Assembly (NCBI GenBank): GCA_934086395.1
Contig: CAKOIE010000002.1
Location: 14,678-78,677 of the forward strand
Direction of reading: 5' to 3'
Source: an uncultured Bacilli bacterium
Lineage (GTDB): Bacteria > Bacillota_I > Bacilli_A > RF39 > UBA660
DNA: 64,000 bases
In this document: piece after piece, positions 904 through 42,323 of the stretch
Layout of the letters: every line of letters begins with the position of its first letter
Numbering within the stretch: position 1 is the stretch's first letter
The notes under the pieces: model-generated
Told to the model about the DNA's origin: nothing
The model's input: only the letters and a program-made list of their open reading frames with translations
Databases searched by the model: none
Position numbers and translations under genes: made by a program

Positions 904-917
904 AGTTACGTCTCCTA

Positions 918-2805: not shown

Positions 2806-3477
2806 TTACTTACACATATTACTTTTAAAATTTAAATTATAATCTCCAATATAAATATCTTTATTACCATCTATCGTATTACATTTAATTAATGTAATAT
2901 TCTTATCTTTATTTTTAAATATAATTGTTCCACCATCTTTTAAAATAGATTGCTTATTTAATAAGTTAGTAATATTTTCAATTGACTTATCCACTACCTC
3001 AGTACTATTAATTATATTTTTTCTTAAAGATGTTTGTTTTTTATTTTCAACAATAAATAATTCACTAACGTTTTCTGCTAAATAGATAGTTCTATTATCA
3101 AATTTTAAATATTCTTTAAAATTAATATTTTTATCATTATTTTCCGAAGATACTTTTAAATCAATATCTAAACTATTAGTATTATAAGGTCCACCTTGTT
3201 CAAACTTAATATATTTAGAATCAATATTAGCTTTTTCTAAAAATTCATTTTGTTTTAATTCACTATTATCAATTAAGTTAACTACAATAATATTATTTTC
3301 TTCATCTAAATAAAAAGCACCTAAATTAGATCTATCTACACTACTATCGTCAAAATAATTACCAACCGCACTATAAGTATCTTGTAAATTTGTTGGTTTT
3401 TGTACACTTTTATTACCACAACCAAACGTAACTAAAGTTAAAATTGAACATAAAACTAAAATACATATTTTTTTCAT
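2806..3477 (-). CDS. Putative lipoprotein
   Basis: Signal peptide with lipobox-like LVTFGC. Confidence 0.55.
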   Translation of the reverse strand: MKKICILVLCSILTLVTFGCGNKSVQKPTNLQDTYSAVGNYFDDSSVDRSNLGAFYLDEENNIIVVNLIDNSELKQNEFLEKANIDSKYIKFEQGGPYNTNSLDIDLKVSSENNDKNINFKEYLKFDNRTIYLAENVSELFIVENKKQTSLRKNIINSTEVVDKSIENITNLLNKQSILKDGGTIIFKNKDKNITLIKCNTIDGNKDIYIGDYNLNFKSNMCK

Positions 3478-3598: not shown

Positions 3599-6007
3599 CT
3601 ACTCGCTTCTTAAAGCATCAACTGGATTCTTTTTACTTGCCATCTTAGATGGAATAAGTCCTGCTATAACATTTAATAAAACACTAAGTAAAATCATTAT
3701 AACACCTTGTATTAAAGGTAAACTGAAATTAAGATTAACTTTAACTAATGTTTTTAAAATAATATTAATTGGTATAGACAACAATACTGATATACCTACA
3801 CCTAACACTCCAGCAATAACACCTTCAATAATAGTTTCAGATTTAAATACTCTTGAAATATCTTTTCCACTAGCACCAAGTGCTTTTAAAATTCCAATTT
3901 CTTTTGTTCTTTCAAGTACACTAATATAAGTAATAATTGCAATCATTATACTAGAAACAATTAAACTTACACTAACTACACCAATTAAAACTGCACTTAC
4001 TCCACTTACAATTGATGAAAGTTCAGTAAGAATTATTTTATTTTCATCACTATAAACTATTTTTTTATTTGTATTACCTTTATCTAATTGTTCCTTATTA
4101 TAGTTATCAATATATTCCTTAATTTTATTTTTAGAATCAAAATCTTTCGGAACGATACTAATACCTTCCGGATTATCTATATCTAATGAATTTAATAAAA
4201 GCATATTTCTATCATAAGTAGTATAAACATTATCAAATTTATCTCCACTAAAGACATCTATATCTTTATTCTTAATTTGTTCTTTAACTATTTCACTATC
4301 ATTTATATGCTGAACAAATTTTTTAAATAATTCTTCACTATAATATATATAAGAATCAGCATATTCACTATTATCATCTTCACTTGTATATTTAAGAATA
4401 CCAACAATATTTAAGTCAATTCCTTTCGTAATTAAATCATTCATATATTCCTTATCATTAAGTTTATTTATGTATTTTTCACCAACTTTTTGATATATAT
4501 CAGTATTATAAATTAACTTATATTTTAATTTTAAAAATGTATCATATGTATATGTTGTAGATTCGACTTTTTCATTTTTATTAATTAAATCTAAAACATT
4601 GTCCTTATCTTTAAGATATAAATAATATAGTACTGAATCATTAATTATTCCATCACTAGGAACTAATAATACCATATCATTTTCAGTTTCCGGATAATTT
4701 CCAGCCACTAAAGTATATTTATCATTTTCTTTTAAATAGTCAAAATTAATCTTATTAAATTTAATACCAGAAAAAGAATTTTTTAACCCATCATCTTCAT
4801 TAACAAATTCTATTAAAGGTTCAGTTATTTTAACAAAATCATCTTTATATTTATAATATATTGGAAGTGTATAATCATATTCATAATCTACATTTTTTGC
4901 ATATTCTTTAATTGAATTATTATTTTCAATATACTTTTTGAAAGATTTTAAATCATTTTTAATATATAATCCATCTTTTTTATTAAAACTTGATACAACA
5001 TCATCGTAAGAACAAATATCACTTTCACATTTATTTTTATCTGAATTAGAGTTGCTAAAATAATTTTCCATATCAAATGTGCTTTGTGAAATCGTTATAG
5101 GAAAATCTTCAAGAGTTTCTTTTTCAAATTTATTAATGTAATTTTTTAATCCTGAATTTAAAATTAACACTAAGCATATTCCTAGTATTCCAATAGATCC
5201 AGCAAAACTTGTTAAAAATGTTCTTCCTTTTTTAGTTAACAAATTTTTTAAAGATAAACTAAGTGTTGTTAAATAAGGCATATTTGTCTTATTAAATTTA
5301 ATTTTAGAACCATCTTCACTATTAGTTATTTTATAACTATTACTATCCCCAACAATTTTTCCATCCTTAAGTTCAATTATTCGATCTGAATATTTATTTG
5401 CTATTTCTTTATTATGAGTAACCATAATAATTAATTTATTTTTAGATATTTCTTTTAAAATATCCATAATCTGTACACTAGTATTTGAGTCTAATGCTCC
5501 CGTTGGCTCATCAGCTAAAATTATGTTTGGATTATTAACTATGGCTCTTGCAATAGCTACTCTCTGCATTTGTCCACCCGATAATTGATTAGGCTTTTTA
5601 TATAAATGATCATTTAATCCAACTTTTATTAATGCTTCGGTTGCTTTAATTCTTCGTTCTTTTTTGTTTATTCTTGATAAAGTTAATGCTAGTTCTACAT
5701 TTTCAAGAACACTTAGATGTGATATTAAATTATAATTTTGAAATACAAACCCAATTTTATAATTACGATAACTGTCCCAATTCTTTTTGGTGAAATTTTT
5801 AGTAGATAAATTATCAATAACTAAATCTCCGCTATCATAAACATCTAATCCACCAATTATGTTTAAAAGTGTTGTTTTTCCACTACCACTTGCTCCTAAA
5901 ATAGATACAAATTCATTTTTTCTAAAAGTTATATTTATATCCTTTAAAACTTGTTGCTTTTCTTCACCTATAATATAACTCTTATAAATATTTTTTAACT
6001 GCAACAT
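3599..6007 (-). CDS. ABC transporter, fused ATP-binding domain and FtsX-type permease (MacB-like)
   Basis: N-terminal Walker A GASGSGKTT, ABC signature LSGGQMQR and Walker B IILADEPT. C-terminal FtsX-like transmembrane helices with a long extracytoplasmic domain between them. Confidence 0.8.
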   Translation of the reverse strand: MLQLKNIYKSYIIGEEKQQVLKDINITFRKNEFVSILGASGSGKTTLLNIIGGLDVYDSGDLVIDNLSTKNFTKKNWDSYRNYKIGFVFQNYNLISHLSVLENVELALTLSRINKKERRIKATEALIKVGLNDHLYKKPNQLSGGQMQRVAIARAIVNNPNIILADEPTGALDSNTSVQIMDILKEISKNKLIIMVTHNKEIANKYSDRIIELKDGKIVGDSNSYKITNSEDGSKIKFNKTNMPYLTTLSLSLKNLLTKKGRTFLTSFAGSIGILGICLVLILNSGLKNYINKFEKETLEDFPITISQSTFDMENYFSNSNSDKNKCESDICSYDDVVSSFNKKDGLYIKNDLKSFKKYIENNNSIKEYAKNVDYEYDYTLPIYYKYKDDFVKITEPLIEFVNEDDGLKNSFSGIKFNKINFDYLKENDKYTLVAGNYPETENDMVLLVPSDGIINDSVLYYLYLKDKDNVLDLINKNEKVESTTYTYDTFLKLKYKLIYNTDIYQKVGEKYINKLNDKEYMNDLITKGIDLNIVGILKYTSEDDNSEYADSYIYYSEELFKKFVQHINDSEIVKEQIKNKDIDVFSGDKFDNVYTTYDRNMLLLNSLDIDNPEGISIVPKDFDSKNKIKEYIDNYNKEQLDKGNTNKKIVYSDENKIILTELSSIVSGVSAVLIGVVSVSLIVSSIMIAIITYISVLERTKEIGILKALGASGKDISRVFKSETIIEGVIAGVLGVGISVLLSIPINIILKTLVKVNLNFSLPLIQGVIMILLSVLLNVIAGLIPSKMASKKNPVDALRSE

Positions 6008-6035
6008 TCTAATAACTCCTAATCATTTATTTTAC

Positions 6036-6629
6036 TTACTTATTTTTTAATTCTTTATTATAAAACACACATTGTTTAAACAAATAATAAATAATTACTG
6101 TAAATAAATCAATACAACACAAGATAATAAAAATATACTCATTAACAAATAAAAAACTAAAAAAAGCTAAAAATACCATAATAAAACAACAATTTCTAAT
6201 TATTAATGCATATTTTAATTTTTCCTCGGTAAATAATTCATCTTTAGTTGAAACCTTATTAACTATTTTAAAAACATAAATTAAAATTATTATAAGAATT
6301 GCAAAAATAACAATTAATAAAACTACTGGTTGATAAATGTTTAACATTGAAAATCCATTAAGCTTAATATTATTAACTAAATTCGTTACTTCTGTTGCAT
6401 CAGAATATCCACAAAAATTTCTTAAAAAAGACATAATTGGTTCATTTGCTAAAATCTCATCAATAGATTTTTCTTTAATAAATAAGTAAATTAATGTACC
6501 TAAATTTGCAACATAAATAGTAAAAAACACAACTAAAGCTATTAATAAATAAACAAATCTTTTTATAGATTTCATATCTTTAATTATATTTTCTTCTTCA
6601 TCTTTTTTAATATTATTTTTCTTTACCAC
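6036..6629 (-). CDS. Membrane protein, hypothetical
   Basis: Multiple hydrophobic helices. Directly upstream of the ABC gene on the same strand. Confidence 0.45.
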   Translation of the reverse strand: MVKKNNIKKDEEENIIKDMKSIKRFVYLLIALVVFFTIYVANLGTLIYLFIKEKSIDEILANEPIMSFLRNFCGYSDATEVTNLVNNIKLNGFSMLNIYQPVVLLIVIFAILIIILIYVFKIVNKVSTKDELFTEEKLKYALIIRNCCFIMVFLAFFSFLFVNEYIFIILCCIDLFTVIIYYLFKQCVFYNKELKNK

Positions 6630-6675
6630 ACTAACTCAAACTCCTATCTACTATAATAATAACATAAACCAAAAA

Positions 6676-8070
6676 TTATATCTTATTATTTCTTATCTCA
6701 TATCTAATATTTTCATCATATCCATGATATAAATTATAATACCTACCAAAATATTCTCCATCTATTTTATCAAACCATACATAATTAGGATACTTATAAC
6801 TATTAACCTCAATTATCTTTTTATCTAAATTATTTTTAATAAAACTATCCCTTTCAACTTCACACCCATAATTTTCAATATTTACATACAAAAGTAAAAC
6901 ATATAAAATAAAACAAAAAATCTTAAACCAAACATAATCCTTAATAATAATCTTATTTATATCTAACACCCTAAACATTAAAATAATAATTAACACATAA
7001 GGTAAAAAGAATAATCTTTCTCCTAAAGGATGTATAAATACTAAAGGTAAAATAACACATACAATTAACAATACTAATTCCCATACATCTTTATTAAACT
7101 TAACTAATTTATATATTAAATAAAAATATAATATCAAATATAAAACATCTACTATAAATATAAAGTAAATATTAAACTTAAATAATCCACATAATATAGT
7201 CAAACATGTTAACATATTAAAAATTATCAACAATAAAGTATTTTTTAATTTACCTTTAAAATATAAATAAGAAAAAACAAACAATATAAATCCATTCAAA
7301 ATAACATTATCATTAATTAAGTTCACAAATATTCCATTAAATAAATTATTACTAATAATTCTAACTAATGAAGATTTATCTTGAGGAATATATCTATCAT
7401 TTAAAGTAGTACCAAATATTAAATTTAGATAACTTGGATGAATAAACATCATAATTGCACCAATAATACTACCAATTAACATAATAATTAGATTAATATT
7501 AACTCTTTTATTTTTAATAAAATATATTAAATTATAAATAAATAAAATCATTAAAGTACCAACAGTTATATTTTCAACGACTAATGAATTAAGTATTGTA
7601 ACAACAAATATTCCAATTTTTTCATACCATTTACTATTAGTTTTTTTATAATACTTCTTAATTAAATAGTATACACTTATAAAAAGTAATGTACTAATCA
7701 TATAATTACTAAATCCACTACCCCAAATTATAACTTGTGTAAATCTATTAATAGGCATTAAAAGTATTAATATTAAGAATATCCACAATGATATTTTTTC
7801 ATTTTTATCAATTAAATATAAAAGTAAAGTACTAACAAATGAAATTACTAATGCTTTAATTAAATGATTATAAGATATAAAAATTGCAACAAAATTCCCT
7901 AACCATCTTCCATTTAAAAATAAATCATTATATATATCTTTAATTGTACTAAAACTTAAACTTTTACTACCCCAATAAAAATCATCACATGAAAAAGGAA
8001 AGAAAAAAGAAAGTAACATTATCAAACAAAACAATATTATATATTTTTTATACTTCTTTAAATAATTCAT
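6676..8070 (-). CDS. Polytopic integral membrane protein (possibly a glycosyltransferase-like or YfhO-like membrane protein)
   Basis: 464 aa with more than 10 predicted transmembrane segments. Family is uncertain. Confidence 0.45.
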   Translation of the reverse strand: MNYLKKYKKYIILFCLIMLLSFFFPFSCDDFYWGSKSLSFSTIKDIYNDLFLNGRWLGNFVAIFISYNHLIKALVISFVSTLLLYLIDKNEKISLWIFLILILLMPINRFTQVIIWGSGFSNYMISTLLFISVYYLIKKYYKKTNSKWYEKIGIFVVTILNSLVVENITVGTLMILFIYNLIYFIKNKRVNINLIIMLIGSIIGAIMMFIHPSYLNLIFGTTLNDRYIPQDKSSLVRIISNNLFNGIFVNLINDNVILNGFILFVFSYLYFKGKLKNTLLLIIFNMLTCLTILCGLFKFNIYFIFIVDVLYLILYFYLIYKLVKFNKDVWELVLLIVCVILPLVFIHPLGERLFFLPYVLIIILMFRVLDINKIIIKDYVWFKIFCFILYVLLLYVNIENYGCEVERDSFIKNNLDKKIIEVNSYKYPNYVWFDKIDGEYFGRYYNLYHGYDENIRYEIRNNKI

Positions 8071-8310
8071 CTACCATCACTACAAATATAGTATCATACT
8101 AATAATTATACATAAACAATTATTTTAATTAATTAAACTTTTTAACAAATAAGACCATTAAAAAAACTTTTTTTAAATAATTAACGAATTTTCATTGATG
8201 AACATTTGTTTTATGTGTATAATAGTAGTTACAAACCAAAAGTAGATAATATATGTAAATTTATTATATTAAATACTTTAATTAAATTTATACAATAAAG
8301 GAGGAAAGTT

Positions 8311-9258
8311 ATGAAAAATGAAATTGTATTATTTAAAAATCAAAATGTAAAACTTGAGGTTAATATGAAAGATGAAACTGTATGGTTATCATTAGATCAA
8401 ATGGCTAAATTATTTGGTAGAGATAAATCCGTTATATCTAGACATATTAAAAATGCATTAGAAGAGGAACTTGATATCTCAACTGTTGCAAATTTTGCAA
8501 CAGTTCAAAATGAAGGCGGCAGAAACGTAACTCGTAATATTGATTACTACAATCTCGACATGATAATAAGTGTAGGTTATCGTGTTAAAAGTCAAAATGG
8601 TGTTATTTTCAGAAAATGGGCTACTAAGATATTAAAAGAATATATGATTAAAGGTTATGCTGTAAATCAAAAGAGATTAGAATATCTTGAAAAAACTGTT
8701 AAATTAATAGATATTGCTGGAAGAATAGATACCAAATTAAAAGAAAATGAAGCCCAAGAAATAATTAAAGTAATAAATAATTATTCTAATGCTTTAGACC
8801 TTCTAGATGATTATGATCATAAAAGAATTATTAAACCAAATGGAACTAAAAATAATAAACAAATCACTTATGAAGATTGTTTAAATATCATTACTAAACT
8901 AAGATTTAGTAATGATAGTGATTTATTTGCCCTTGAAAGAAATCAAGGATTAAAAGAAATTATTGGTGCTATATACCAATCATTTGATGGTAAAGATTTA
9001 TATCCTACTATAGAAGAAAAAGCTGCTAATTTCCTTTACTTAATTATTAAAAATCATGTTTTTATTGATGGAAATAAAAGAATTGCTGCTACTCTATTTA
9101 TATATTTTCTTGAATTCTATAATATCTTATATTTTGAAAATAAACAGATTATAGATAATAATACTCTTGTTGCAATTACTCTCCTAATAGCAGAATCTAA
9201 TCCAAAAGAAAAGAATATACTTACTGATTTAGTAATGAATTTTTTAAACAACAAATAA
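8311..9258 (+). CDS. RhuM N-terminal domain fused to a Doc/Fic toxin-like domain
   Basis: The N-terminus aligns with the RhuM protein at 918..1895 (VWLSLDQMAKLFGR.., SVGYRVKSQNGVIFRKWATKILKEY). The C-terminus has the Doc motif HVFIDGNKRIAA. RBS AAGGAGG 8 nt before the ATG. Confidence 0.7.
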   Translation: MKNEIVLFKNQNVKLEVNMKDETVWLSLDQMAKLFGRDKSVISRHIKNALEEELDISTVANFATVQNEGGRNVTRNIDYYNLDMIISVGYRVKSQNGVIFRKWATKILKEYMIKGYAVNQKRLEYLEKTVKLIDIAGRIDTKLKENEAQEIIKVINNYSNALDLLDDYDHKRIIKPNGTKNNKQITYEDCLNIITKLRFSNDSDLFALERNQGLKEIIGAIYQSFDGKDLYPTIEEKAANFLYLIIKNHVFIDGNKRIAATLFIYFLEFYNILYFENKQIIDNNTLVAITLLIAESNPKEKNILTDLVMNFLNNK

Positions 9259-9314
9259 TACATTATACTTTAGTTTATAAAATTAATTACATAAAAAAAG
9301 GGCCTAACCCCTTT

Positions 9315-10061
9315 TTAAATTTCCTTAATATTTTTAATATCTAATACTTCATTAATACTTGTTTTCTTATTCCCTACTAAATAAACAGTAACTAAACTGT
9401 TATCATAATCAGTAATTCCTATTTTAGTAAATAAACTTTTTAAATCAGTTTCACTTAAACTATCTATGGCAATTAATTTAAAACTATCATCAATCATCTT
9501 ACTTAATTTAACATAATCTAAAATATTATCATAATTGTAATTATTTGAAACTAACACAACCTTTTTCTTACTTTTACCTTTATAAATAGATAAAAATTCC
9601 TTAACATTAATATAATATTTTTCATCAAAATTAATTTTATATAATTCATTGTATTCTTGTTCACTTAAATTATTATCATCCATAAATTTATGTTCATAAG
9701 CAAGTTCTTTACTATTATAAAGAGTCTTCTCTTCCCCATTAATAGTTACAACCAATTTTTTATCATCATATGTTGCAATATATAACTTATTATTTTTAAT
9801 ACTACAATCTAACTTAATAACATTAGAAGAATTATTATATTTATAAGTATTACAATCCTTATATCTTTCTTCATTATTACTAACATTTTTAAAACTAAAT
9901 CTATTATTTGCTAAATTAAGAACATACATATCATTATTTTCTAACAAGTACCAATCATGTCCACCTAATTGTTCACTAGGCATATCACTAAAATCATATA
10001 TAAGAATAGCCCCGACAAATAAGACTGCTAGAATAAGTATAAATATAAAACCTTTTTTCAT
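9315..10061 (-). CDS. Secreted or membrane-anchored hypothetical protein
   Basis: N-terminal signal/anchor sequence. No recognisable domain. Confidence 0.45.
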   Translation of the reverse strand: MKKGFIFILILAVLFVGAILIYDFSDMPSEQLGGHDWYLLENNDMYVLNLANNRFSFKNVSNNEERYKDCNTYKYNNSSNVIKLDCSIKNNKLYIATYDDKKLVVTINGEEKTLYNSKELAYEHKFMDDNNLSEQEYNELYKINFDEKYYINVKEFLSIYKGKSKKKVVLVSNNYNYDNILDYVKLSKMIDDSFKLIAIDSLSETDLKSLFTKIGITDYDNSLVTVYLVGNKKTSINEVLDIKNIKEI

Positions 10062-10077
10062 AAATACCTCTTATCTA

Positions 10078-10881
10078 TTATCTAAATATAAAATATAAAA
10101 TTACGATAACACTAAGTATTATACGATAATATCCAAATATTTTAAAGTCATTTGTTTTAATATATTTAAGTAAGTATTTAATTGCCATTAAAGATACAAT
10201 AAACGCAGTAATCATTCCAACTAATAATATAATTATTTCACTACTTGTAAATACAAACCCAAATTTAAGTATTTTTAATAAAGACGCTCCAGCCATAACA
10301 GGAATAGCCATATAAAAAGTAAAATTAGTAATAGTTGTTCTATCAAGTCCCATTTCTAAACCACCAATAATAGTTGCTCCACTTCTACTAGTTCCAGGAA
10401 TAATAGATAATACTTGAAATAAGCCAACTTTAAATGCATTTAAAAATGATACCTCTTTTATTGTATTTTTCTTTTTATGATTTTCAACTATTATAAATAA
10501 AACACCATAAATAAATAATGTTATTGCAACAGTCCATGGATTATAAAAATGTTCATCTATCCAATCATCAAATAACAATCCAACTATTGCGCATGGTATA
10601 CATCCTACTAATATTTTACACCATAATATAAAAGTATTCTTAGTATCATCTTTAGTTTTATTAAATCCCCAAGGAAATAAATCTTTAAAATAAATAACAA
10701 CAACAGCCATAATAGCACCAAGTTGAATAACAACTTCAAACATTTTCCAAAATTCACTTGATACATCCAATTTAATCAATTCATTTGCTAAAATCATATG
10801 TCCAGTACTACTTATTGGAAGCCACTCAGTAACACCTTCAATTATACCTATAATAATAGTCTTTATAATATTTAAAAACAT
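10078..10881 (-). CDS. uppP: Undecaprenyl-diphosphate phosphatase (BacA/UppP)
   Basis: Conserved N-terminal motif GIIEGVTEWLPISSTGHM and about 8 transmembrane helices. Confidence 0.85.
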   Translation of the reverse strand: MFLNIIKTIIIGIIEGVTEWLPISSTGHMILANELIKLDVSSEFWKMFEVVIQLGAIMAVVVIYFKDLFPWGFNKTKDDTKNTFILWCKILVGCIPCAIVGLLFDDWIDEHFYNPWTVAITLFIYGVLFIIVENHKKKNTIKEVSFLNAFKVGLFQVLSIIPGTSRSGATIIGGLEMGLDRTTITNFTFYMAIPVMAGASLLKILKFGFVFTSSEIIILLVGMITAFIVSLMAIKYLLKYIKTNDFKIFGYYRIILSVIVILYFIFR

Positions 10882-11633
10882 TATTTTTCCTTCTTTCTTT
10901 GAATTTTATATAAAATCTTTAATTGTAATCTATACGGTAAAAATCTAGAAAAGAATATTCCAAGTTTCATCATCATACCAGGAACAATTATCATTTTTCC
11001 CTTTAACGCTTTATCAATTCCATATTTAGCAACATAACTACTACTTAAACTTCTCGTATTAAATCCACCACCAGCTACACTATTAAAATTTGTATTAACC
11101 GGTCCCGGACACAAAGCACTAATTGCAACATTAGATTTCTTAACTTTTAATTCTTCATTAATTGCCATCGTAAGTTTAAGAACATAATTCTTAGTTGCAT
11201 AATAAGTATTTAAATAAGGCCCAGCAAAAAATCCCGCTGATGATGCTACATTAAGAATCTTACCTTTATTATATTTAACCATATCTTTTAAAAATAGTTT
11301 AGTTAAAATATGTAAAGCCTTTATATTAACATCTATCATTTCTAATTCTTTATCCAAGTTAGTTTCATCAAAAAATCCAAATAATCCAAAGCCAGCATTA
11401 TTTATAAGAAAATCAATTTTTTCACCCTTAACTTTTTCATACAACTTATAAACATTAGCATCAATCGATAAATCATAATCATATATCGCTTTTGCGTTTT
11501 TACATAAATCAGCAACCTCTTGAAGTCTTTCTTTATTTCTACCTACCAAAAAAACCTCATATCCTAAACTATCTAAATAAATAGCCATATCTTTACCTAT
11601 ACCTGAAGATGCTCCAGTAATTAATGCTTTCAT
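10881..11633 (-). CDS. SDR family oxidoreductase
   Basis: TGASSGIG dinucleotide-binding motif. Confidence 0.75.
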   Translation of the reverse strand: MKALITGASSGIGKDMAIYLDSLGYEVFLVGRNKERLQEVADLCKNAKAIYDYDLSIDANVYKLYEKVKGEKIDFLINNAGFGLFGFFDETNLDKELEMIDVNIKALHILTKLFLKDMVKYNKGKILNVASSAGFFAGPYLNTYYATKNYVLKLTMAINEELKVKKSNVAISALCPGPVNTNFNSVAGGGFNTRSLSSSYVAKYGIDKALKGKMIIVPGMMMKLGIFFSRFLPYRLQLKILYKIQRKKEK

Positions 11634-12244
11634 TCTATTTCTCTCCTATTCAAATAATTAATTCCTATTAATAATACTACAAATCCCCACAAGAAACCAC
11701 CTATTACATCCGAAAAATAGTGTACACCCAAATATATTCTACTCATACCAATCAAAATAACTAATAAGCCAAGTAAAGAAATAATCACTCTTTTAATATT
11801 TATATTAATTTTACTTTTATAAATAAAATAGCAAATTATCCCATAAAAAACAAAAGATGTCATTGAATGTCCTGAAGGAAAACTAAAATTATTCTCACTT
11901 ACCAACCATAAACTTATATTAGGTCTTTCTCTTTTAACAATTATTTTTAATAATGAGTTTACAAATGAACTACACGCTGAAAAAAGGACTATTCTAAAAC
12001 ATTTATTATTTTTCTTAACAATTCCATATATAATAGCTAAAACATTAAGAATAACAATAAATTTAACACTCCCCAAAAAAGTAATTACTTTAAAGAAGTT
12101 AGTAAAAAAATCACATTTTAAACTAATTAACAAATTATATATCCAATTATCTATCACTTTGAATTGATTAGCTACAACTAATAATGTCCAAATTAAAGCA
12201 ATAATTATTAACAAAAATTTTAAATATTTATATTCTCTTTTCAT
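11630..12244 (-). CDS. PAP2 family phosphatase (membrane)
   Basis: PAP2 motifs PSGHS and SRIYLGVHYFSDV. Confidence 0.7.
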   Translation of the reverse strand: MKREYKYLKFLLIIIALIWTLLVVANQFKVIDNWIYNLLISLKCDFFTNFFKVITFLGSVKFIVILNVLAIIYGIVKKNNKCFRIVLFSACSSFVNSLLKIIVKRERPNISLWLVSENNFSFPSGHSMTSFVFYGIICYFIYKSKININIKRVIISLLGLLVILIGMSRIYLGVHYFSDVIGGFLWGFVVLLIGINYLNRREIE

Positions 12245-19917: not shown

Positions 19918-20808
19918 CTATACTAATTCATAATTTCTAGCTATAATTCTTTTATCACTACAATATTCAATAATATATTCATTATTTTCTCTACATACAA
20001 TTATTCCAATTGTTTTATCTTGATTTGATTTCTTTAAATTATTATCTATATAATTCATATATATTTCTATTTGTCCAATATGTTCTTTCTTTAGTTTTGC
20101 AACTTTAAGTTCTACTACAACATAACAATTAAACTCTATGTTATATAGTAATAAATCAATATAATTATATCTATCACCTAATTTTATAGGATACTCATTA
20201 CTAATAAAGCTAAAGCCTGATCCTAGTTCTTGCATAAAATTTTTAATATCTTCTAATATAATTTGTTGCAATACTTTTTCGGATATTTCAATATATTTAT
20301 TTGTATTTTTAATCAATATTGGATTCTTTACTAAATCAGGTAATAATGGTTCTTCATTTGCAATAAGTTTAGTCTTAGCGCTTTCATTTAATCTTTCGTA
20401 TTCTTTGAATTTAATTTTTTCGTCTAATTGTCTTTTTGTTAAATTATATTTTATACATTCATTAGCGTAATAGTTAATTTCGTCATAATTTCTTAATGGA
20501 ATTAAAAGTAAACAATTGCTCCAAGATAATTGTCGCACCAATGGAGCGACTTTTTCATTACTAAAAATTTTAAATAATTGTTTCATTTTGTATAAGGTTT
20601 TAGTATTATACTTTTTGCCTACTTCTACAACTAATCTTTTAGAATATTCATCAATAATATTATCGCCATATTTACCACCTGCTTCATTTAATAATCTTCC
20701 TATTTCAAAATAAGTATTTACAGTATTTCTTTCTTTTGAATAATCTTTTACTTTAGAGTATATTTCATTATCTATTATTTTATTTTTTATTTCTTCATAA
20801 TAATTCAT
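19918..20808 (-). CDS. DUF1016/YhcG-like PD-(D/E)xK nuclease family protein (copy B)
   Basis: N-terminal DUF1016_N-like region with a QLSWSN motif. C-terminal PD-(D/E)xK-like 'YIDLLLYN...YVVVELK'. The C-terminal 150 aa are identical to copy A. Confidence 0.7.
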   Translation of the reverse strand: MNYYEEIKNKIIDNEIYSKVKDYSKERNTVNTYFEIGRLLNEAGGKYGDNIIDEYSKRLVVEVGKKYNTKTLYKMKQLFKIFSNEKVAPLVRQLSWSNCLLLIPLRNYDEINYYANECIKYNLTKRQLDEKIKFKEYERLNESAKTKLIANEEPLLPDLVKNPILIKNTNKYIEISEKVLQQIILEDIKNFMQELGSGFSFISNEYPIKLGDRYNYIDLLLYNIEFNCYVVVELKVAKLKKEHIGQIEIYMNYIDNNLKKSNQDKTIGIIVCRENNEYIIEYCSDKRIIARNYELV

Positions 20809-20823: not shown

Positions 20824-21714
20824 CTATACTAATTCATAATTTCTAGCTATAATTCTTTTATCACTACAATATTCAATAATATATTCATTATTTTCTCTAC
20901 ATACAATTATTCCAATTGTTTTATCTTGATTTGATTTCTTTAAATTATTATCTATATAATTCATATATATTTCTATTTGTCCAATATGTTCTTTCTTTAG
21001 TTTTGCAACTTTAAGTTCTACTACAACATAACAATTAAACTCTATGTTATATAGTAATAAATCAATATAATTATATCTATCACCTAATTTTATAGGATAC
21101 TCATTACTAATAAAGCTAAAGCCTGATCCTAGTTCTTGCATAAAATTTTTAATATCTTCTAATATAATTTGTTGCAATACTTTTTCGGATATTTCAATAT
21201 ATTTATTTGTATTTTTAATCAATATTGGATTCTTTACTAAATCAGGTAATAATGGCTTTACATTTGCAATAAGTTTAGTCTTAGCGCTTTCACTAAGTCT
21301 TTCATATTCTTGAGATTTAATCTTATTTCGCAATTCTCTTATACTAATATTAAAGTTATTACAAATTCTTATGTAGTATATTATTGCATTGATATTTTTT
21401 AGCTTTAATAATTCTGAATAATGACTCCAAGTCAATTGTGTCGACAGTGTCGACACTTTTTCATCACTAAATACTTTATAAAATTGCTTCATCCTAAATA
21501 AGGTACGGCGATTATATTTTTTGCCTACTTCTACAACTAATCTTTTAGAATATTCGTCAATAATATTATCGCCATATTTACCACCAGCTTCGGTTAATAG
21601 TCTACCTATTTCAAAATAAGTATTTACGGTATTTCTTTCTTTTGAATAATCTTTTACTTTAGAGTATATTTCGTTATCGATTATTTTATTTTTTATTTCT
21701 TCATAATAATTCAT
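20824..21714 (-). CDS. DUF1016/YhcG-like PD-(D/E)xK nuclease family protein (copy A)
   Basis: Same architecture as copy B. The N- and C-termini are identical and the middle ~75 aa diverge. Confidence 0.7.
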   Translation of the reverse strand: MNYYEEIKNKIIDNEIYSKVKDYSKERNTVNTYFEIGRLLTEAGGKYGDNIIDEYSKRLVVEVGKKYNRRTLFRMKQFYKVFSDEKVSTLSTQLTWSHYSELLKLKNINAIIYYIRICNNFNISIRELRNKIKSQEYERLSESAKTKLIANVKPLLPDLVKNPILIKNTNKYIEISEKVLQQIILEDIKNFMQELGSGFSFISNEYPIKLGDRYNYIDLLLYNIEFNCYVVVELKVAKLKKEHIGQIEIYMNYIDNNLKKSNQDKTIGIIVCRENNEYIIEYCSDKRIIARNYELV

Positions 21715-22518: not shown

Positions 22519-22777
22519 CTATATATATATTTAGTATAAAGTTTATTAATTTACTTGTTTTTTTTGTAAATAAAATAGAATTTAATTAAAATAAAAAAGA
22601 CATTGAACCAATCAATATCCATTTTAACTTATAATATCTAAATAAAATAACTTCATATATTGTTAAAAATAACACTGTAAGAAATAGAAAATGTTTATAA
22701 AGTTTTCCTAAGAACGGGCTCCTATAATCGCGTGGCAGGTCCCTACCTGCCTGCTCTCCCTCGCGCTTCGCTATATA

Positions 22778-24295
22778 TCACTCAAGTGTATATGCATTTT
22801 CTATACTTTCGCCTGTTCCTCCAGCTATCACGACATCAGATTTTAAGAAAAGGGCCGGACGCACACCATACGTGCTGAAAGCAACGCGGTCGCTGACATC
22901 CCCGCCCGAACCGACACGGAACACATAATCCGCATCGCCAGAACTAGGGGACAAAGTCCATTGATATGCACTGTTAAATAACCAGTTATTTACTTTACTA
23001 TCAGCATCATCACAGTCGTATAAACTATTTCTGCATGCAGCTCCGGTTGATGCATATCCATAATCACTTGGATAAATTAAGGCGATTTTTCCATCCCATG
23101 CATTTTTTCTTGCTATTCCGTCTGATGGATTACTGATATGTAATGTTCCTCTTTCGGCATTGTACATATTCAAAGCAGAAACTGAATATGTATTATAACC
23201 ACCTAGATTCCATCTTACTTTTGCTACTTTATCTAATGAACTACTTTTTATATTTTTTCTATAATCGTATGATCCATTTTTTTCATTATTTTGTCCATTA
23301 TACCATAAGGTTGTACCACTCGTTTTATTTGATAAATACCCTTCAGCAATATCACTTCGACAATATGCTGTGCTTCCACTACCATCACAGTTTAATTCAT
23401 ACATTAAATCTGCTTGACTCCATTCATTTACTCCCCATCCATTATTTATACTTGATTCAGAAGTATCCCATGAATAATTTCCTAGTAAATCATTTCTTAC
23501 TATTTTTACAAGTGATTCCTTCTTTTCTTTACCATTCTCATCTATTGTTGTTATATTATTAAATACTCCTATTATTCTCCATATTTCATCACCATTAAAT
23601 TTTAGATAGTTCCTTGGTGATGCTCCTACATATCTTATATTTTTTTCTGGTGTATCATCTTTTTCTAATCCATTATCTGTTGCTGCTTTATTGTATGTAT
23701 TATTTAAATGTAAAAATAAGGGGGTTAGTGATGATGTATCGTTTGTATTTTCTATTGTTATTTTAGCGTTCAAAACTAATTGCCCATTTTTATTTTGAAT
23801 TTTATCTGATTTAGGAAAATATAAATTTAAACGATACTTAGTAGTTGTATTTGTTTTAGGTGATATTGTTAATTCTTTTAAAATTGCTTTACCAGCTGCT
23901 ATAGTTGGAAACATTGTCTTTTCTTGAACTACTGTACTATAATTTGTTCCACTATAAATATCATAATATAGAACACCGTCATTTTCAGTATCAGTAAATG
24001 TATTTAAATCTATTATTGTCTTCAAATACAATTTATAACTATTATTAGAAGTGTTTTTTACTGTTATAGAAAAATCCTTATAACCAATTGGTGTATCACC
24101 AGGTAATGCATTTTCAATAGTTATAGTACTCGTCGATTCAAACTTTGCAGATAACTGAGCACCTCCAATAATCATAGTTGATGAATCTTCTGACTTTATA
24201 TTTAAATCAAAATATGCATAAGTTATACCAAAAAATAATCCAATAGTTAATAAGAATACTAATAAAGTTATTATAATAATTTTGTTATTTTTCAT
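22778..24295 (-). CDS. Secreted protein with a TasA/camelysin-like SipW-cognate signal peptide and a conserved C-terminal domain (paralog 1)
   Basis: N-terminal 'KIIIITLLVFLLTIGLFFGITYAYFD' resembles TasA/CalY signal regions (GGTxAxF). C-terminal '..WTLSPSSG..VRPALFLKSDVVIAGGTGESIENAYTLE' is shared with paralog 2. Lies 35 nt downstream of the GH31 gene. Confidence 0.6.
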   Translation of the reverse strand: MKNNKIIIITLLVFLLTIGLFFGITYAYFDLNIKSEDSSTMIIGGAQLSAKFESTSTITIENALPGDTPIGYKDFSITVKNTSNNSYKLYLKTIIDLNTFTDTENDGVLYYDIYSGTNYSTVVQEKTMFPTIAAGKAILKELTISPKTNTTTKYRLNLYFPKSDKIQNKNGQLVLNAKITIENTNDTSSLTPLFLHLNNTYNKAATDNGLEKDDTPEKNIRYVGASPRNYLKFNGDEIWRIIGVFNNITTIDENGKEKKESLVKIVRNDLLGNYSWDTSESSINNGWGVNEWSQADLMYELNCDGSGSTAYCRSDIAEGYLSNKTSGTTLWYNGQNNEKNGSYDYRKNIKSSSLDKVAKVRWNLGGYNTYSVSALNMYNAERGTLHISNPSDGIARKNAWDGKIALIYPSDYGYASTGAACRNSLYDCDDADSKVNNWLFNSAYQWTLSPSSGDADYVFRVGSGGDVSDRVAFSTYGVRPALFLKSDVVIAGGTGESIENAYTLE

Positions 24296-24329: not shown

Positions 24330-26741
24330 TTATAATTCTGCTATATATTCTAATAATTTTAAGAACATTGTTATATATTTAGGATGTAATCCTTTTCTTT
24401 TTAATTTACGAATAGATATTCTTTTAGTTCTTATTTCTTCATCACTAAATAATATAGTCGCAATTTTTTCTTTTAATTCAGTTGTTATTTGTAAATCAGA
24501 TAGAATTGAATCTAAATCTTCATTTATTATTCTTTCTGCTTCTATTTCAATGTCTTTTCCTTTACAATTAATAGATAATTGAGTATTAGTTGGAACATTT
24601 AAAATAGATACTACAAAGTCATTTTCTTCTATAGAATATTCAAAATTATCTTGTTTTTCTTCACCAATATATACTAATACATCACTTGGTTTACGAACAT
24701 TTCTAAATCTTATTTTATAATTTCTAGTAGGCATTATTACTCTAGTTGTTCCACTTGTTGGTCTTATAATTACAGTATAATTATTTAATTGATAATTATA
24801 GTCTATATTTGTTATTAAATAAGCTCCTTTTTCATATTCAAGAGTTGTCCCATCATCTTCATATAATTTATACGTATTACTTTGTCCTGGAAATATTTGT
24901 ATTTCTAAATCTTTCGGATTAGATGTATCATTAATATTTTTTTCATCTAATATAGCCAAAGGAATTATAGTTCCTCTTTTAGCAAATACAGGATAATCTT
25001 CATCTTCATAGAATGTAACATATCTTTTTCCTCCCATAAATTTTTTACCAGTTTTAAAGTCATACCATATTCCATTTGGTAAAAATATTCTTTGGACTGT
25101 TCTATTCATTATTATATTCTTTTTAGTTGTTATAGGAGATATAAATAATTCACTACCAAAATAATATTCATTTTTATAATCTAGTTCATCATATATTTCA
25201 GGATAACGATAATATATTGGTTGAATTAATGGTAATCCAGTTTGACTATATTTATATGTTTCTGTATAAATATAAGGGATAAGACGATGTCTTAAATTTA
25301 AATAATCTTTAACTATAAGATATGTTTTAACATCCCATAACCATGGTTCTCTTTTATAATAGTGTGATGTATCTGATGAAAATCTAAGTATTGGAGAGTA
25401 TGTTCCTAGTTGGACAAATCTCATATATAGTTCAGGATCTTCAGTTCCTAATTTATATCCTCCAATATCATGAGACCAAAAACTTATTCCAATATTTGAT
25501 GATTTTGAATTAAATTCAGGTACCAAATTTAAATTCTTCCAACTTACAATTGTTTGTCCACTATAAAGAATTGGATATTTATGAGATGCAATTAAACCAT
25601 TACGAGAAAGTATCATTGGTCTTTTATTAAAGAATCTTTTAAAATCATATGTATGATAACGATTTAATGTTCTTAAAATACTAATATTTTTAGGATTATT
25701 ATAATCTATCCAGAAAAAATCAGTACCAAAATCATATAGTGGTTTAATTAGTTCATCAAAATATGCATTTAACATATCTGGATTATAAACATTAAAAGGT
25801 ATAATTCCTTCTCCTTCATATTTTGATTCTTGTTTAAATCTATTATAAGCTATTTCATCAGGAGATATTCCTTCCATAGGATTTATATTTAATCCAATAT
25901 GTATATTGTTATTGTGAAGATTATCTATTAATTCTTTAGGGTTATCTATTAAATTATAGTTGAATGTGAAACCAGAATTAGTTCCTTCATACTTTAAATG
26001 CCAATCTTTATTTAATAATATAATAGATAAAGGGATATTATGATATTTAAAGTTTTCTATAAGTTCATTTATCTGTTTATCAGTATAAGCAATATTCTTA
26101 TTCCACCAATTACCTAGAGCATATCTTGGTATAAGTGGTGGTTTTCCAGTTAGTTTAAAATAATCTCTTAGACAATACCCAAAATCTTTACGATATAAAA
26201 ATACATATGTATCTATTCTTTCATCTTCTCTTTTAATTAAGGAACCATCATCATTTATTATTAAAGAATTACTATCATCTATTGAAGCAAATCCATCTGT
26301 TGAATATAGGCCTTTTTCAAAATTAGCTGTTCCATCTATATCATCTAAAGAATATGATGTTCCCTTAAAGTTTCTAGCTTCAGGAGCACCAAAAAACCAT
26401 AGTTTATCAGTATTATTTAGACTAATCCTTAAATTTATATCTGGAGCTATTTTAGTTCCATAAAATGGTTTTTCTTTTTGATATTCTAGTTTAAAATAAT
26501 TAGTTGTAATGGTTAAAAATTCTTTATCATTTTTTACAAAGAATTTTGGTGGTTGGAATCTTCTAAATGAAGCAAATTCAGTTGGTCTATTTTCAAATTT
26601 TCCTTCATTTGAATATTCTAATCTTATTAAAACATCACTAAGTATAGTTATACGATAGTTTTTACCAATTATCATTGATTCTTCAAGTGATTTAGCTTCT
26701 TCATAATTTCTTATTAAAAAATGATCTTTTAATCTTGTCAT
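24330..26741 (-). CDS. Glycoside hydrolase family 31 (alpha-glucosidase/alpha-xylosidase-like)
   Basis: 803 aa. GH31-like catalytic region 'FFWIDYNNP' and 'HDIGGY'. Confidence 0.65.
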   Translation of the reverse strand: MTRLKDHFLIRNYEEAKSLEESMIIGKNYRITILSDVLIRLEYSNEGKFENRPTEFASFRRFQPPKFFVKNDKEFLTITTNYFKLEYQKEKPFYGTKIAPDINLRISLNNTDKLWFFGAPEARNFKGTSYSLDDIDGTANFEKGLYSTDGFASIDDSNSLIINDDGSLIKREDERIDTYVFLYRKDFGYCLRDYFKLTGKPPLIPRYALGNWWNKNIAYTDKQINELIENFKYHNIPLSIILLNKDWHLKYEGTNSGFTFNYNLIDNPKELIDNLHNNNIHIGLNINPMEGISPDEIAYNRFKQESKYEGEGIIPFNVYNPDMLNAYFDELIKPLYDFGTDFFWIDYNNPKNISILRTLNRYHTYDFKRFFNKRPMILSRNGLIASHKYPILYSGQTIVSWKNLNLVPEFNSKSSNIGISFWSHDIGGYKLGTEDPELYMRFVQLGTYSPILRFSSDTSHYYKREPWLWDVKTYLIVKDYLNLRHRLIPYIYTETYKYSQTGLPLIQPIYYRYPEIYDELDYKNEYYFGSELFISPITTKKNIIMNRTVQRIFLPNGIWYDFKTGKKFMGGKRYVTFYEDEDYPVFAKRGTIIPLAILDEKNINDTSNPKDLEIQIFPGQSNTYKLYEDDGTTLEYEKGAYLITNIDYNYQLNNYTVIIRPTSGTTRVIMPTRNYKIRFRNVRKPSDVLVYIGEEKQDNFEYSIEENDFVVSILNVPTNTQLSINCKGKDIEIEAERIINEDLDSILSDLQITTELKEKIATILFSDEEIRTKRISIRKLKRKGLHPKYITMFLKLLEYIAEL

Positions 26742-40005: not shown

Positions 40006-40779
40006 TTATCTTAAATACTTTTTCATATTATTGATGGCATTTTTTTCGATACGTGATACTTGGGCTTGTGATACGCCTAAATCAGCTGCAATTTCTAACT
40101 GAGTTTTACCATAAATATATCTAGCATAAAGAACATTTCTTTCTCTCAAGTTTATTTGATTTAAGGCACCAGTTAAAGATATTGTATCATTTTGATCAAT
40201 TAAATCTTTTTTACTTGATAACTGATCTTCTAAGTAAATTGTATCTCCTCCATCATTATAAATTGGTTCAGAAATTGATACTGGTTCTATTAATGATTCT
40301 AAAGCAAGAGATAAATCATACTCAGTAATATTTAATTCATGACATATTTGTTTATTAGATGGTTCGATTCCATGTTTAAGTAAATAATTTTCTTTATATT
40401 TTAGAATTTGATAGGCTGTATCTTTAATGCTTCTAGATATTCTTACAACACTTGATTCTCTAATAAATCTTTTTACTTCTCCTAAAATAAGGGGTACTGC
40501 ATAAGTAGAAAATCGAACATCATAATCAAGTGAAAAATTATCTACTGCTTTAATTAAGCCAACTGTTCCAATTTGAAATAAATCATTCATGTCATATTTG
40601 CCACTATTATAATGTTTAATTACGCTTAAAACTAATTTAAGATTACCATTTACTATATCATCTTTAGCAAGTTTGTCTCCTTTTTGATATTTTTTAAATA
40701 ATTCAATAGTTTCTTCATTTTTTAATACTTTTAATTTGTTTGTATCAATTCCAGTTATTTCAACTTTATATTTTCCCAA
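40006..40779 (-). CDS. sigG: RNA polymerase sporulation sigma factor sigma-G
   Basis: Aligns along its length with B. subtilis SigG ('KVEITGIDTNKLKVLKNEE', 'LVNGNLKLVLSVI', 'FSTYAVPLILGEVKRFIRE', 'ISQAQVSRIEK'). Confidence 0.85.
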   Translation of the reverse strand: MGKYKVEITGIDTNKLKVLKNEETIELFKKYQKGDKLAKDDIVNGNLKLVLSVIKHYNSGKYDMNDLFQIGTVGLIKAVDNFSLDYDVRFSTYAVPLILGEVKRFIRESSVVRISRSIKDTAYQILKYKENYLLKHGIEPSNKQICHELNITEYDLSLALESLIEPVSISEPIYNDGGDTIYLEDQLSSKKDLIDQNDTISLTGALNQINLRERNVLYARYIYGKTQLEIAADLGVSQAQVSRIEKNAINNMKKYLR

Positions 40780-41630: not shown

Positions 41631-42323
41631 TTATTTAACTTCCATAACTGTTTGAAGTTTTTTAATAACCTTTTTTTCAATACGTGATATGTAAGACTGA
41701 CTTATACCTAACATTGCTGCTACTTCTTTTTGAGTATATTCTTCATTATTATTTAAACCATAACGAAGTGTCATAATTTCTTTTTCACGATCATTTAATT
41801 TTACCAATTCTTTTTTTAATAAATCTTTATCTACTTTTAAAGAAAACTCATCAAATACGATATTATTATCAGTTCCTAAAATATCTTCTAAGTGCAATTC
41901 ATTACCTTCAGGATCATAGTTTATTGCATCTTCTAAAGAAACTTCTGTTTTTCTTTTTTTATTTTTGCGAATATACATTAATATTTCGTTAGCGATACAA
42001 CGAGATGCATAGGTAGCTAATCTAATATTTTTATCTGGTTTATAAGTTTCAATTCCTTTAATTAAACCAATAGATCCAATAGATACTAAATCTTCTAAGT
42101 CATAACCCGTACTTTCATATTTTTTAGCTAAAAAGACTACCAATCTAAGATTATGTTCTATAAGTTTATTTCTAGCTTGTATATCACCTTGTTTACTTTT
42201 AATAATTTCTTCAAACTCTTCTTCTTTGGATAAAGGTGGTGGTAATATATCTGCACTACCAACAAATAGTAAACTATTATCTATTTTTAACAACTTAAAT
42301 ATTAAATCAATTAATTTTCTCAT
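41631..42323 (-). CDS. sigE: RNA polymerase sporulation sigma factor sigma-E (pro-sigma-E)
   Basis: Pro-sequence then 'ALPPPLSKEEE', 'LIEHNLRLVVFLAKKY', 'ATYASRCIANEILMYIRK', 'ISQSYISRIEKK'. Matches B. subtilis SigE. Confidence 0.9.
   Translation of the reverse strand: MRKLIDLIFKLLKIDNSLLFVGSADILPPPLSKEEEFEEIIKSKQGDIQARNKLIEHNLRLVVFLAKKYESTGYDLEDLVSIGSIGLIKGIETYKPDKNIRLATYASRCIANEILMYIRKNKKRKTEVSLEDAINYDPEGNELHLEDILGTDNNIVFDEFSLKVDKDLLKKELVKLNDREKEIMTLRYGLNNNEEYTQKEVAAMLGISQSYISRIEKKVIKKLQTVMEVK

Follow-up and report, generated by a model that had tools for sequence, protein, structure and literature searches.

Secreted proteins of uncultured gut Bacilli that join a TasA-like leader and beta-sandwich to a lectin-like domain targeted by diversity-generating retroelements

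Introduction

Lectin-fold proteins diversified by diversity-generating retroelements (DGRs) are already known, among them Mtd of Bordetella phage, TvpA of Treponema, LdtA of Legionella and the DUF6273 "tentaclins" of phages, and DUF6273 is documented as a DGR target domain (PMC10743442). Here we describe three paralogous genes, paralogs 1 to 3, in a 64-kb stretch of DNA of ~24% GC (the window; positions 14,678 to 78,677 of contig CAKOIE010000002.1, assembly GCA_934086395.1) from an uncultured Bacilli bacterium of the RF39 lineage, together with the large protein family to which they belong. As in the described DGR lectin proteins, the variable region (VR) of this family lies at the C-terminal end of the lectin domain, a fixed scaffold is interspersed with hypervariable codons derived from AAY, and a conserved GC-rich 3' end follows the VR; in two relatives (loci L043 and L051), the gene also has as its neighbours a template repeat, a reverse transcriptase and an Avd-like gene. 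Unlike in those proteins, the lectin-like domain is about twice the usual size and matches no more than the final 45 positions of the DUF6273 model, the head is attached to a leader and beta-sandwich of the TasA type, one VR scaffold is common to at least five paralogs in each of two metagenome-assembled genomes (MAGs), and the target gene in the window has no DGR nearby.

The tip adhesins of Bacteroides type V pili are DGR-diversified, and these pili assemble by protease-triggered strand exchange (bioRxiv 10.1101/2024.11.15.621889). They are the closest functional analogue of the present family, being modular, multi-paralog surface proteins of gut commensals in which a DGR-diversified lectin-like domain is combined with a pilin-type module. 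The family described here differs in coming from another phylum and in having another assembly module (a TasA/M73-like sandwich) and another protease, and its polymerisation is something we infer.

For the leader and the sandwich, the closest relative is TasA/CalY (tapA-sipW-tasA of B. subtilis; 5OF1, 8AUR), which resembles the family in its leader (G-x-T-aromatic-A|aromatic-F), in a beta-sandwich of ~160 amino acids (aa), in three collinear motifs (G-x-L-x-L, (L/V)PGD...K-x-F and, near the domain end, QN-x-x-(Q)G) and in the presence of sporulation genes in the host. Unlike TasA/CalY, the family proteins are about twice the size and carry a lectin-like domain, no sipW or tapA adjoins those of their genes whose surroundings were examined, and the window proteins score below the cut-off of the M73 profile. 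The head is structurally closest to the domain at the N-terminus of the Thomasclavelia ramosa IgA peptidase (IgAse; 9QA6), which comes from a gut Firmicute and is likewise a C-type-lectin-like domain of the DUF6273 kind and of increased size; it differs from the C-terminal module of the family in having no detectable sequence similarity to it, and IgAse is a sortase-anchored metallopeptidase for which no DGR has been reported. Phase variation through a homopolymer in the promoter spacer is known from the poly-A of the Mycoplasma hyorhinis vlp genes and from the poly-C/G of Neisseria opc and porA. The resemblance here is a run between the -35 and -10 boxes of variable surface-protein genes whose length sets the spacer; unlike the known switches, the G-run of the present family is short and mostly fixed at G7.

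On balance we think it likely that the window proteins are Sec-exported two-module proteins with a TasA-like stalk and a DGR-diversified lectin head, subject to module exchange and possibly to promoter switching. As a TasA-like leader and sandwich are joined in them to a lectin-like domain with a DGR-marked tip, they are probably fast-evolving adhesins rather than plain matrix fibres. What is new relative to the described systems is the fusion of a DGR-type lectin head to a TasA-type leader and sandwich, the expansion of the family in abundant uncultured gut Bacilli, two MAGs of which have at least seven loci each, and the addition of module exchange and a conserved G-tract promoter to hypermutation. 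A search of the literature found no article joining DGRs with TasA or with RF39, and the articles that combine DGRs and Tenericutes concern unrelated topics.

Results and discussion

The C-terminal region contains a DGR variable region

The listing of open reading frames (ORFs) bears out the three ORFs of 505-531 aa given in an earlier, preliminary description of this DNA, all of them on the minus strand (Table 1). The proteins have in common a C-terminal region of ~300 aa, the C-module, for which that description named the motifs WTLSP, VRPALFLKSD and GGTGE; the shared region stands, but paralog 3 deviates from the motifs (VFPSIYLKSN, TGTGEKTNPY). What was overlooked is the DGR VR that lies between WTLSP and VRPALFLKSD and is the main engine of diversification. 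Only three GC-rich islands occur in the 64 kb: the VR of paralog 1, a tRNA gene and a hairpin element just downstream of paralog 1. The rest of paralog 1 has a GC content of 28% and an A content of 42%.

Across the family, sequence entropy peaks at 2.1-2.3 bits over residues 451-480 of paralog 1, with ~0.5-1.0 bits in the flanks (0.5-0.8 along the greater part of residues 211-300, 0.7 immediately behind the VR). The pattern is that of a fixed scaffold with hypervariable sites set into it, WTLSP-x-SG-x-A-xx-VF-x-V-x-SGG-x-V-xxxx-A-xxxx-GVRP. Among 12 VR DNAs from different loci, the entropy at codon positions 1, 2 and 3 is 1.08, 1.08 and 0.42, compared to 0.58, 0.44 and 0.61 in the flanks, which is the NN-Y pattern expected from the AAY codons of a template repeat. 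Of the 774 residues that occupy the 15 hypervariable positions, 761 (98.3%) fall within the set of 15 amino acids accessible from AAY, compared to 82.1% elsewhere in the same proteins, and K, E, Q, M and W are almost excluded. A pair of relatives, P0102 and P0117, illustrates the outcome: their C-flanks are 99.3% and their N-modules 97% identical, and they share none (0/15) of the hypervariable residues.

Complete DGR cassettes lie beside the relatives at L043 (8052..10369) and L051 (11018..13320), on the strand opposite the target gene, each comprising an A-rich template repeat, a 109-aa ORF, a reverse transcriptase, a bAvd-like gene and a 123-aa ORF. The reverse transcriptase of L043 matches RVT_1 with 62.5 bits and contains IGNYSSQ...YMDD. 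Mismatches between template and variable repeat fall on template adenines in 18 of 18 cases at L043 and in 16 of 17 at L051. The entropy pattern, the AAY bias, the A-poor VR and the cassettes beside relatives together identify this family as a DGR target family. The reverse transcriptase gene of L051 is possibly disrupted, as its ORF is the shorter one, at 301 aa, with a separate 62-aa ORF behind it.

The three window genes differ in the state of this region. The VR of paralog 2 is decaying, given the two codons it lacks, its GC content of 36% and the presence of K and E, and the equivalent stretch of paralog 3 has the base composition of the genome and therefore no DGR signature. At least five scattered paralogs with the same VR scaffold occur in each of two related MAGs, with the template repeat absent from the flanks of up to 10 kb per side, which favours targeting in trans. 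A template for the VR of paralog 1 would be expected to resemble TGGACTTTGTCCCCTAATTCTGGCAATGCGAATAATGTGTTCAATGTCAATTCGGGCGGGAATGTCAACAACAACAATGCGAACAACAATAATGGTGTGCGTCCGGCC; searches by blastn with gene 3' ends and an inferred template, covering the window and all 105 loci, recovered only other VRs and the different template lineage of L043 and L051. Two states fit paralog 1: it is targeted from a distance by a DGR elsewhere in the genome, or it has recently become an orphan.

The C-module has an enlarged lectin-like fold

When the full-length model was compared to the PDB with Foldseek, the best match was T. ramosa IgAse (9qa6; E 4.8e-7, 327 columns), whose N-terminal domain is annotated as DUF6273, has a double-size C-type-lectin-like fold and is not needed for catalysis (PMC12402451, PMC12237041). 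Among the 15 top matches in BFVD, a library of viral structures, 8 are DUF6273 proteins of gut phages, at probability 1.00. By these comparisons, the modelled fold of the C-module is shared with solved and predicted DUF6273 domains. In sequence, the relationship shows towards the domain end, the final 39 columns being all that aligns when the C-module is compared to canonical DUF6273 copies by hhalign (E 0.0011). The profile check of the C-terminal region that the preliminary description had proposed gave a partial answer, with DUF6273 similarity in paralogs 1 and 2 but at sub-cut-off scores and over the last ~45 model positions only.

A TasA-like leader precedes a beta-sandwich

All three paralogs begin with a K-rich n-region and a hydrophobic stretch of ~20 aa followed by G-I-T-Y-A-(Y/F)-F. 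The leader had been likened to that of TasA/CalY, and the likeness is upheld in all three proteins and across the family, in which the motif [TAS]-x-[AS] is found in 123 of 123 proteins (collected by full-length homology), with small residues at -3 and -1 and aromatic residues on both sides of the predicted cut. The leader of TasA, G-G-T-W-A|A-F, is the obvious parallel. From this pattern, a type I signal peptidase would be expected to cut after Ala27 in paralog 1 and after Ala31 in paralogs 2 and 3, and the three proteins would be exported by the Sec pathway. In the TasA sequence used here, the mature residues 28-261 exactly match PDB 8AUR.

In the AlphaFold model of paralog 1 (pLDDT 83.8), a transmembrane helix is followed by a low-confidence segment (residues 23-36), a beta-sandwich and the C-domain. 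The N-terminal modules of the family are of three types, a, b and c, whose comparison by hhalign gave 92.6% for a with c, 98.3% for b with c and 75.6% for a with b, and on these alignments the types are taken to be homologous to one another. This links the window proteins to two relatives, P0107 and P0108, which exceed the curated cut-off of the Pfam profile Peptidase_M73 (PF12389, 22.5 bits) with 29 and 27 bits over residues 7-187. The hhalign alignments between N-modules and TasA are collinear and match the three short motifs. Against the PDB, Foldseek returned weak, generic beta-sandwiches for the N-module, with the TasA-like archaeal pilin AbpA (7ueg) at rank 10 (E 2.2e-3, probability 0.92). 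The top match, Bd1399, was set aside as a lead to TasA, being a DUF4360 beta-sandwich unrelated to it.

Beyond the leader, then, the proposed relation to TasA/CalY survives in part. The profile check of the N-terminal region leaves the window proteins below the M73 cut-off and places P0107 and P0108 above it; the structural check finds the anticipated beta-sandwich but leaves TasA outside the Foldseek top 50; and similarity of the window proteins past the leader is marginal in profile comparisons (below). The sandwich probably, but not demonstrably, belongs to the TasA superfamily, and by curated thresholds the window proteins fall outside the TasA family.

The absence of a SipW-type signal peptidase gene from the window, as noted previously, is confirmed by the Pfam annotation and by a scan for ORFs with the S26 "SM.P" box: no type of signal peptidase is encoded in the 64 kb, and the only S24-type protein that Pfam detects among candidate-size ORFs and neighbours is LexA. 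No sipW was found beside short relatives consisting of the N-module only, several of which look like fragments or split genes. The related locus L058 encodes an archaeal/SipW-type signal peptidase (45..1034; TIGR02228, 91.5 bits), which is extended at its N-terminus by ~150 aa rich in repeats; the next gene is that of a 621-aa membrane protein (1045..2910). Some 7.7 kb downstream of the peptidase lies a 213-aa gene with only an N-module (8770..9411; leader G-A-T-F-A-Y-Y), and directly 3' of it a 518-aa family member (9566..11122), an arrangement reminiscent of a minor/major subunit pair.

The family is large and exchanges modules

Paralog 1 has at least 2786 homologues, all of them unnamed proteins of metagenomic origin. 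A scan of one genome per species gave 381 relatives in MAGs from human and animal guts, labelled as uncultured Bacilli, "Tenericutes", Bacillales UBA6331 and Clostridium sp. CAG:1193, and for two MAGs at least seven family loci each are listed. The family is very large, paralog-rich and confined to uncultured low-GC gut Bacilli.

Paralog 2 had been called a chimera, and this is upheld at its N-terminus, where over the first 90 alignment columns it is identical to paralog 3 at 79 of 87 positions and ~35% identical to paralog 1. From column 241 onward the relation is reversed, at ~70% identity to paralog 1 (210/300), not the ~80% given before, and ~45% to paralog 3; in DNA, paralogs 1 and 2 are 76.5% identical over 898 nt. 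The 5' tract of paralog 2, from about -40 to +240, is 94% identical to its counterpart in paralog 3 (55481..55760), and past +240 the DNA identity drops to 55-80%. The tract looks like the product of a gene conversion that would have covered the -10 box, the 5' untranslated region (UTR), the leader and the start of the N-module.

The same discordance between modules recurs in relatives, and the view of a diversifying secreted family built from shuffled modules is borne out by it. P0086 and P0096 have C-modules that are 100% identical, VR included, with N-modules at 39% identity; paralog 1 and P0081 are 94% identical in the C-module and 19% in the N-module; and in P0107 a C-module nearly identical to that of paralog 1 is accompanied by a different N-module, an extra Ig-like stretch and a second, canonical DUF6273 domain. 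At L029, a glycine-rich ALK_LTK domain (PF12810, 124.6 bits) replaces the lectin module in one gene with a variant leader. This locus holds three tandem genes (5964..7643, 8058..9602 and 10001..11545), all with a promoter cassette of the paralog 2/3 type, of which the first two have the variant leader G-Y-S-L-S-M-F and the third the usual G-I-T-Y-S-Y-F. At L088 (8001..8901), a family member is likely a pseudogene, as it is broken into two parts, an ORF of 212 aa and a DUF6273 fragment of 97 aa. The metagenome contig of L084 starts with a break exactly at the repeat region of paralogs 2 and 3 (window ~52330).

A conserved promoter cassette carries a G-run

Strong promoters had been attributed to paralogs 2 and 3. 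For paralog 2 this is supported, its promoter being a sigma-70-type site that scores 11/12 and is the top-scoring one of its region; for paralog 3 it is not, as the copy of the cassette there has a 13-nt spacer and was not scored as a promoter, and judging from the letters this promoter is likely weak or off.

A cassette of the form TTCGC-TTGACG-G(n)-N10-TATAAT-TTCACT precedes genes of the paralog 2/3 class in at least 8 MAGs and 16 further metagenome contigs (loci L008-L032, L047 and L090-L105). In the metagenome scans, the exact 5' UTR of the window recovered nothing and the gapped pattern recovered 16 loci. The G-run varies from 4 to 8 across paralogs and species, with a mode of 7, giving spacers of 15 nt at G6, 16 nt at G7 and 17 nt at G8, and the loci L090 and L091 have near-identical flanks with G7 in one and G6 in the other. 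In a genome of 24% GC, a run of seven G is unlikely to have arisen by chance.

The inverted repeat TTTCAC-N10-GTGAAA had been put forward as a conserved candidate operator. The repeat itself is real, with exactly two occurrences in the window against 0.25 expected, but its role as an operator was set aside: its conservation between paralogs 2 and 3 is not independent functional evidence, since both copies lie inside the 94%-identical tract ascribed to gene conversion; its 5' arm borders on the -10 box and its 3' arm shares bases with the Shine-Dalgarno sequence; and it is found in only 11 of 47 distinct upstream regions.

A model, the points against it and alternative explanations

These results are consistent with a model in which the N-module most likely serves as a stalk or assembly module and the C-module of ~300 aa as a ligand-binding head whose C-terminal WTLSP...GVRP segment is the VR. 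A reverse transcriptase would copy a template repeat into the VR with every template adenine randomised, so that ~15 residues of a putative binding site on the VR surface would be drawn anew while the scaffold stayed constant. Recombination would exchange N- and C-modules among paralogs, and slippage in the G7 run of the promoter spacer may switch expression of the paralog 2/3 class on and off. Paralog 1 would then be a target with a compositionally fresh VR and no local DGR, paralog 2 a recombinant with a decaying VR, and paralog 3 a copy whose VR signature was lost or never present and whose promoter may be crippled.

Several results weigh against this model. As to the stalk, paralog 1 scores 17.2 bits with Peptidase_M73 (residues 15-97, leader included), below the cut-off, and paralogs 2 and 3 have no match to it in Pfam. 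With the leader removed, 1 of 18 N-modules matches M73 (E=0.001). Profile searches of the PDB with full-length and N-module alignments did not recover TasA; hhalign against TasA alone gave a probability of 2%, and against a profile of 109 Bacillus TasA sequences E values of 0.0077 for the c-type, 0.097 for the b-type and 0.27 for the a-type module, at probabilities of at most ~5%. TasA structures (5of1, 8aur) are absent from the 50 top Foldseek matches of the N-module, the three window proteins have no match at E<=1 in NCBIfam, TIGR04088 included, and the window has no SipW-type peptidase. As to the head, paralogs 1 and 2 reach 17.6 and 16.4 bits with DUF6273 (PF19789, cut-off 23.5 bits; model positions 126-172), and paralog 3 has no Pfam match to it. 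No template repeat or reverse transcriptase was found in the 64-kb window, and the VR of paralog 1 is identical in three strain variants (P0361, P0001 and P0362) that differ only at residues 420 and 422, so current diversification in the organism of the window is not demonstrated. As to the promoter, 29 of 39 tabulated cassettes have G7 and the cassette of paralog 2 is identical in a second sample, G7 included; a constant G7 is as readily explained by a fixed element of the promoter as by a slippage switch.

What the N-module does is the point on which explanations diverge most. The proteins might be fibre subunits of the TasA/CalY type, cut by a SipW-type peptidase after G-x-T-Y-A, with the N-module engaged in donor-strand exchange and C-modules exposed along the length of the fibre; this agrees with the stalk-and-head model, to which it adds polymerisation as the main function, and we regard it as a tentative possibility. 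It draws on the agreement of the leader with that of TasA/CalY and on the first ~10 residues after the predicted cut, whose conserved aromatics and low model confidence are as expected of a strand donated to a neighbouring subunit, as well as on the M73 scores of P0107 and P0108, on AbpA among the Foldseek matches, on the TIGR02228 peptidase encoded 7.7 kb upstream of the gene pair in the L058 MAG, and on the lack of any LPXTG, lipobox or wall-binding repeat visible when the sequences were read, for which no dedicated search was made. Against it, profile support for TasA homology past the leader is marginal, the top structural matches are generic beta-sandwiches with TasA not among the first 50, no sipW or tapA-like partner adjoins those family genes whose surroundings were examined, and T-Y-A|Y suits ordinary signal peptidase I too. 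The converse explanation is that these are monomeric secreted or membrane-tethered lectins with an ordinary signal peptide or anchor, in which the sandwich is a spacer and the likeness of the leader to that of TasA is convergent. The residues at -3 and -1 (T/S and A/S) would suit any type I signal peptidase, structure comparison of the N-module leads to generic sandwiches and carbohydrate-binding modules, and a LepB-type peptidase is encoded in the related locus L021; but a seven-residue motif with aromatics flanking the cut, kept across N-module types that are <25% identical goes beyond what a signal peptide needs, and M73 is above its cut-off in relatives. We regard this explanation, too, as possible yet doubtful.

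The origin of the variable tip is less contentious. Ordinary positive selection with recombination, and no retroelement, would be in line with a window that has neither template repeat nor reverse transcriptase, with a VR constant among strain variants and with the recombination that is clearly active in the family. This is nevertheless highly improbable, as the variation is limited to codon positions 1 and 2 with the third base fixed, K, E, Q, M and W are nearly missing at the hypervariable positions, the VR is an A-poor island of 60% GC within a 24% GC genome, and complete DGRs with mismatches tied to adenines adjoin relatives. A derivation from the receptor-binding proteins of a prophage or phage comes to mind, DUF6273 being common in gut phage tail proteins and in phage DGR targets (PMC10743442) and many DUF6273 phage proteins being among the top matches in the viral library. 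For the window genes a prophage origin was rejected on gene context, the neighbours being valS, rpsD, GH31, sigE/sigG and spo0A without phage structural genes; every member has a secretion leader, several paralogs are dispersed through each genome, and exact-pattern scans of IMG/VR for the VR and template repeat found nothing. We consider a phage origin extremely improbable.

The stalk-and-head model can be pressed further, to fibres assembled by TasA-type donor-strand exchange with lectin heads redrawn by a retroelement, expression set by the G-tract, paralogs multiplied by module exchange and one DGR acting in trans on many of them. In this complete form it is unlikely. If it were true, the family would be a Gram-positive counterpart of the DGR-diversified type V pili of Bacteroides, with three layers of variation (hypermutation, recombination and phase variation) in gut Bacilli with small genomes and one DGR serving many scattered targets. 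Should the N-module polymerise, programmable adhesive fibres would extend from Bacteroides to Firmicutes, and the family would open a way to study the adhesion of these uncultured bacteria to hosts, mucus or other microbes. For annotation, thousands of "hypothetical proteins" gain a domain architecture and a testable function.

Coordinates and neighbouring genes

Table 1. Positions of the paralogs, their modules and associated elements in the window
Feature	Position	Strand	Description
Paralog 1 gene	22778..24295	-	505 aa; leader, a-type N-module and lectin-like C-module, intact DGR-type VR
Paralog 1 leader	24215..24295	-	aa 1-27: MKNNK, hydrophobic core, G-I-T-Y-A
Paralog 1 N-module	23726..24214	-	aa 28-190: low-confidence start, then elongated beta-sandwich (AlphaFold models, sub-cut-off M73)
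Paralog 1 C-module	22781..23683	-	aa 205-505: enlarged C-type-lectin-like, DUF6273-related (Foldseek and BFVD)
Paralog 1 DGR-type VR	22853..22960	-	108 nt, aa 446-481, WTLSP...GVRPA; GC 60%, A 10%
GC-rich non-coding insert	22701..22775	-	directly 3' of the paralog 1 stop; hairpin GGCAGGT-AGGG-ACCTGCC, 7 bp/4 nt
GH31 glycosidase gene	24330..26741	-	immediately upstream of paralog 1
Paralog 2 gene	52383..53978	-	531 aa; b-type N-module (the kind of paralog 3), paralog-1-type C-module
Paralog 2 VR-equivalent	52458..52559	-	decayed; GC 36%, A 27%; K and E among its residues, shorter by two codons
Paralog 2 5' tract	53739..54018	-	about -40 to +240; 94% DNA identity to paralog 3 55481..55760
Paralog 2 inverted repeat	53984..54005	-	TTTCAC-N10-GTGAAA; Shine-Dalgarno sequence overlapped, AGGTGAAA
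Paralog 2 promoter cassette	54005..54032	-	TTGACG-(G6+N10)-TATAAT, 16-nt spacer; G7 run ~54021..54027
Paralog 3 gene	54146..55720	-	524 aa; b-type N-module, divergent C-module
Paralog 3 VR-equivalent	54221..54328	-	GC 28%, no DGR signature
Paralog 3 inverted repeat	55725..55746	-	
Paralog 3 cassette copy	55746..55770	-	TTGATG-GGGC...-TATAAT, G4, 13-nt spacer

By Pfam annotation, the genes near the three paralogs are housekeeping, sporulation and metabolic ones: valS, rpsD, GH31, sigE/sigG and spo0A. The suggestion that paralog 1 is co-transcribed with the GH31 gene is strengthened by a gap of 34 nt between the GH31 stop and paralog 1 with no terminator-like site between them, and by one related MAG that retains the same arrangement; co-transcription is probable. 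The sporulation genes of the window (at 41631..43084, 40006..40779, 61860..62612 and 52073..52330) comprise spoIIGA, sigE, sigG, spo0A and a CotF-like gene, a set that sits in a 24% GC genome with relatives labelled "Tenericutes" or Bacilli. Paralog 2 is adjoined by a cluster of PGA_cap (CapA-like), Asp/Glu racemase and ATP-grasp genes (48850..51820), which suggests the synthesis of a poly-amino-acid capsule or cell-envelope polymer.

The GC-rich insert behind the stop codon of paralog 1 has a counterpart in another MAG, again after the homologous gene (L012, 11543..11592), and is not found at L018 and L087, though the flanks are common to both. An Rfam search around the 3' end of paralog 1 gave no meaningful match, and its hairpin folds no better than shuffled sequences; one possibility is that the insert is a small mobile element or serves in target recognition. 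At L031 (~11600..11710), a 796-aa family member is likewise followed by a non-coding stretch that is GC-rich and apparently structured and includes GGGCCGTTCCTGCGAGCGAAAGCGAG.

Further downstream of paralog 1, the window holds a tandem pair of 296-aa YhcG/DUF1016-type nuclease-like paralogs (19918..20808 and 20824..21714) with near-identical N-terminal ~40 aa and C-terminal halves and divergent middles. In another sample (L001), this site is occupied by a single copy.

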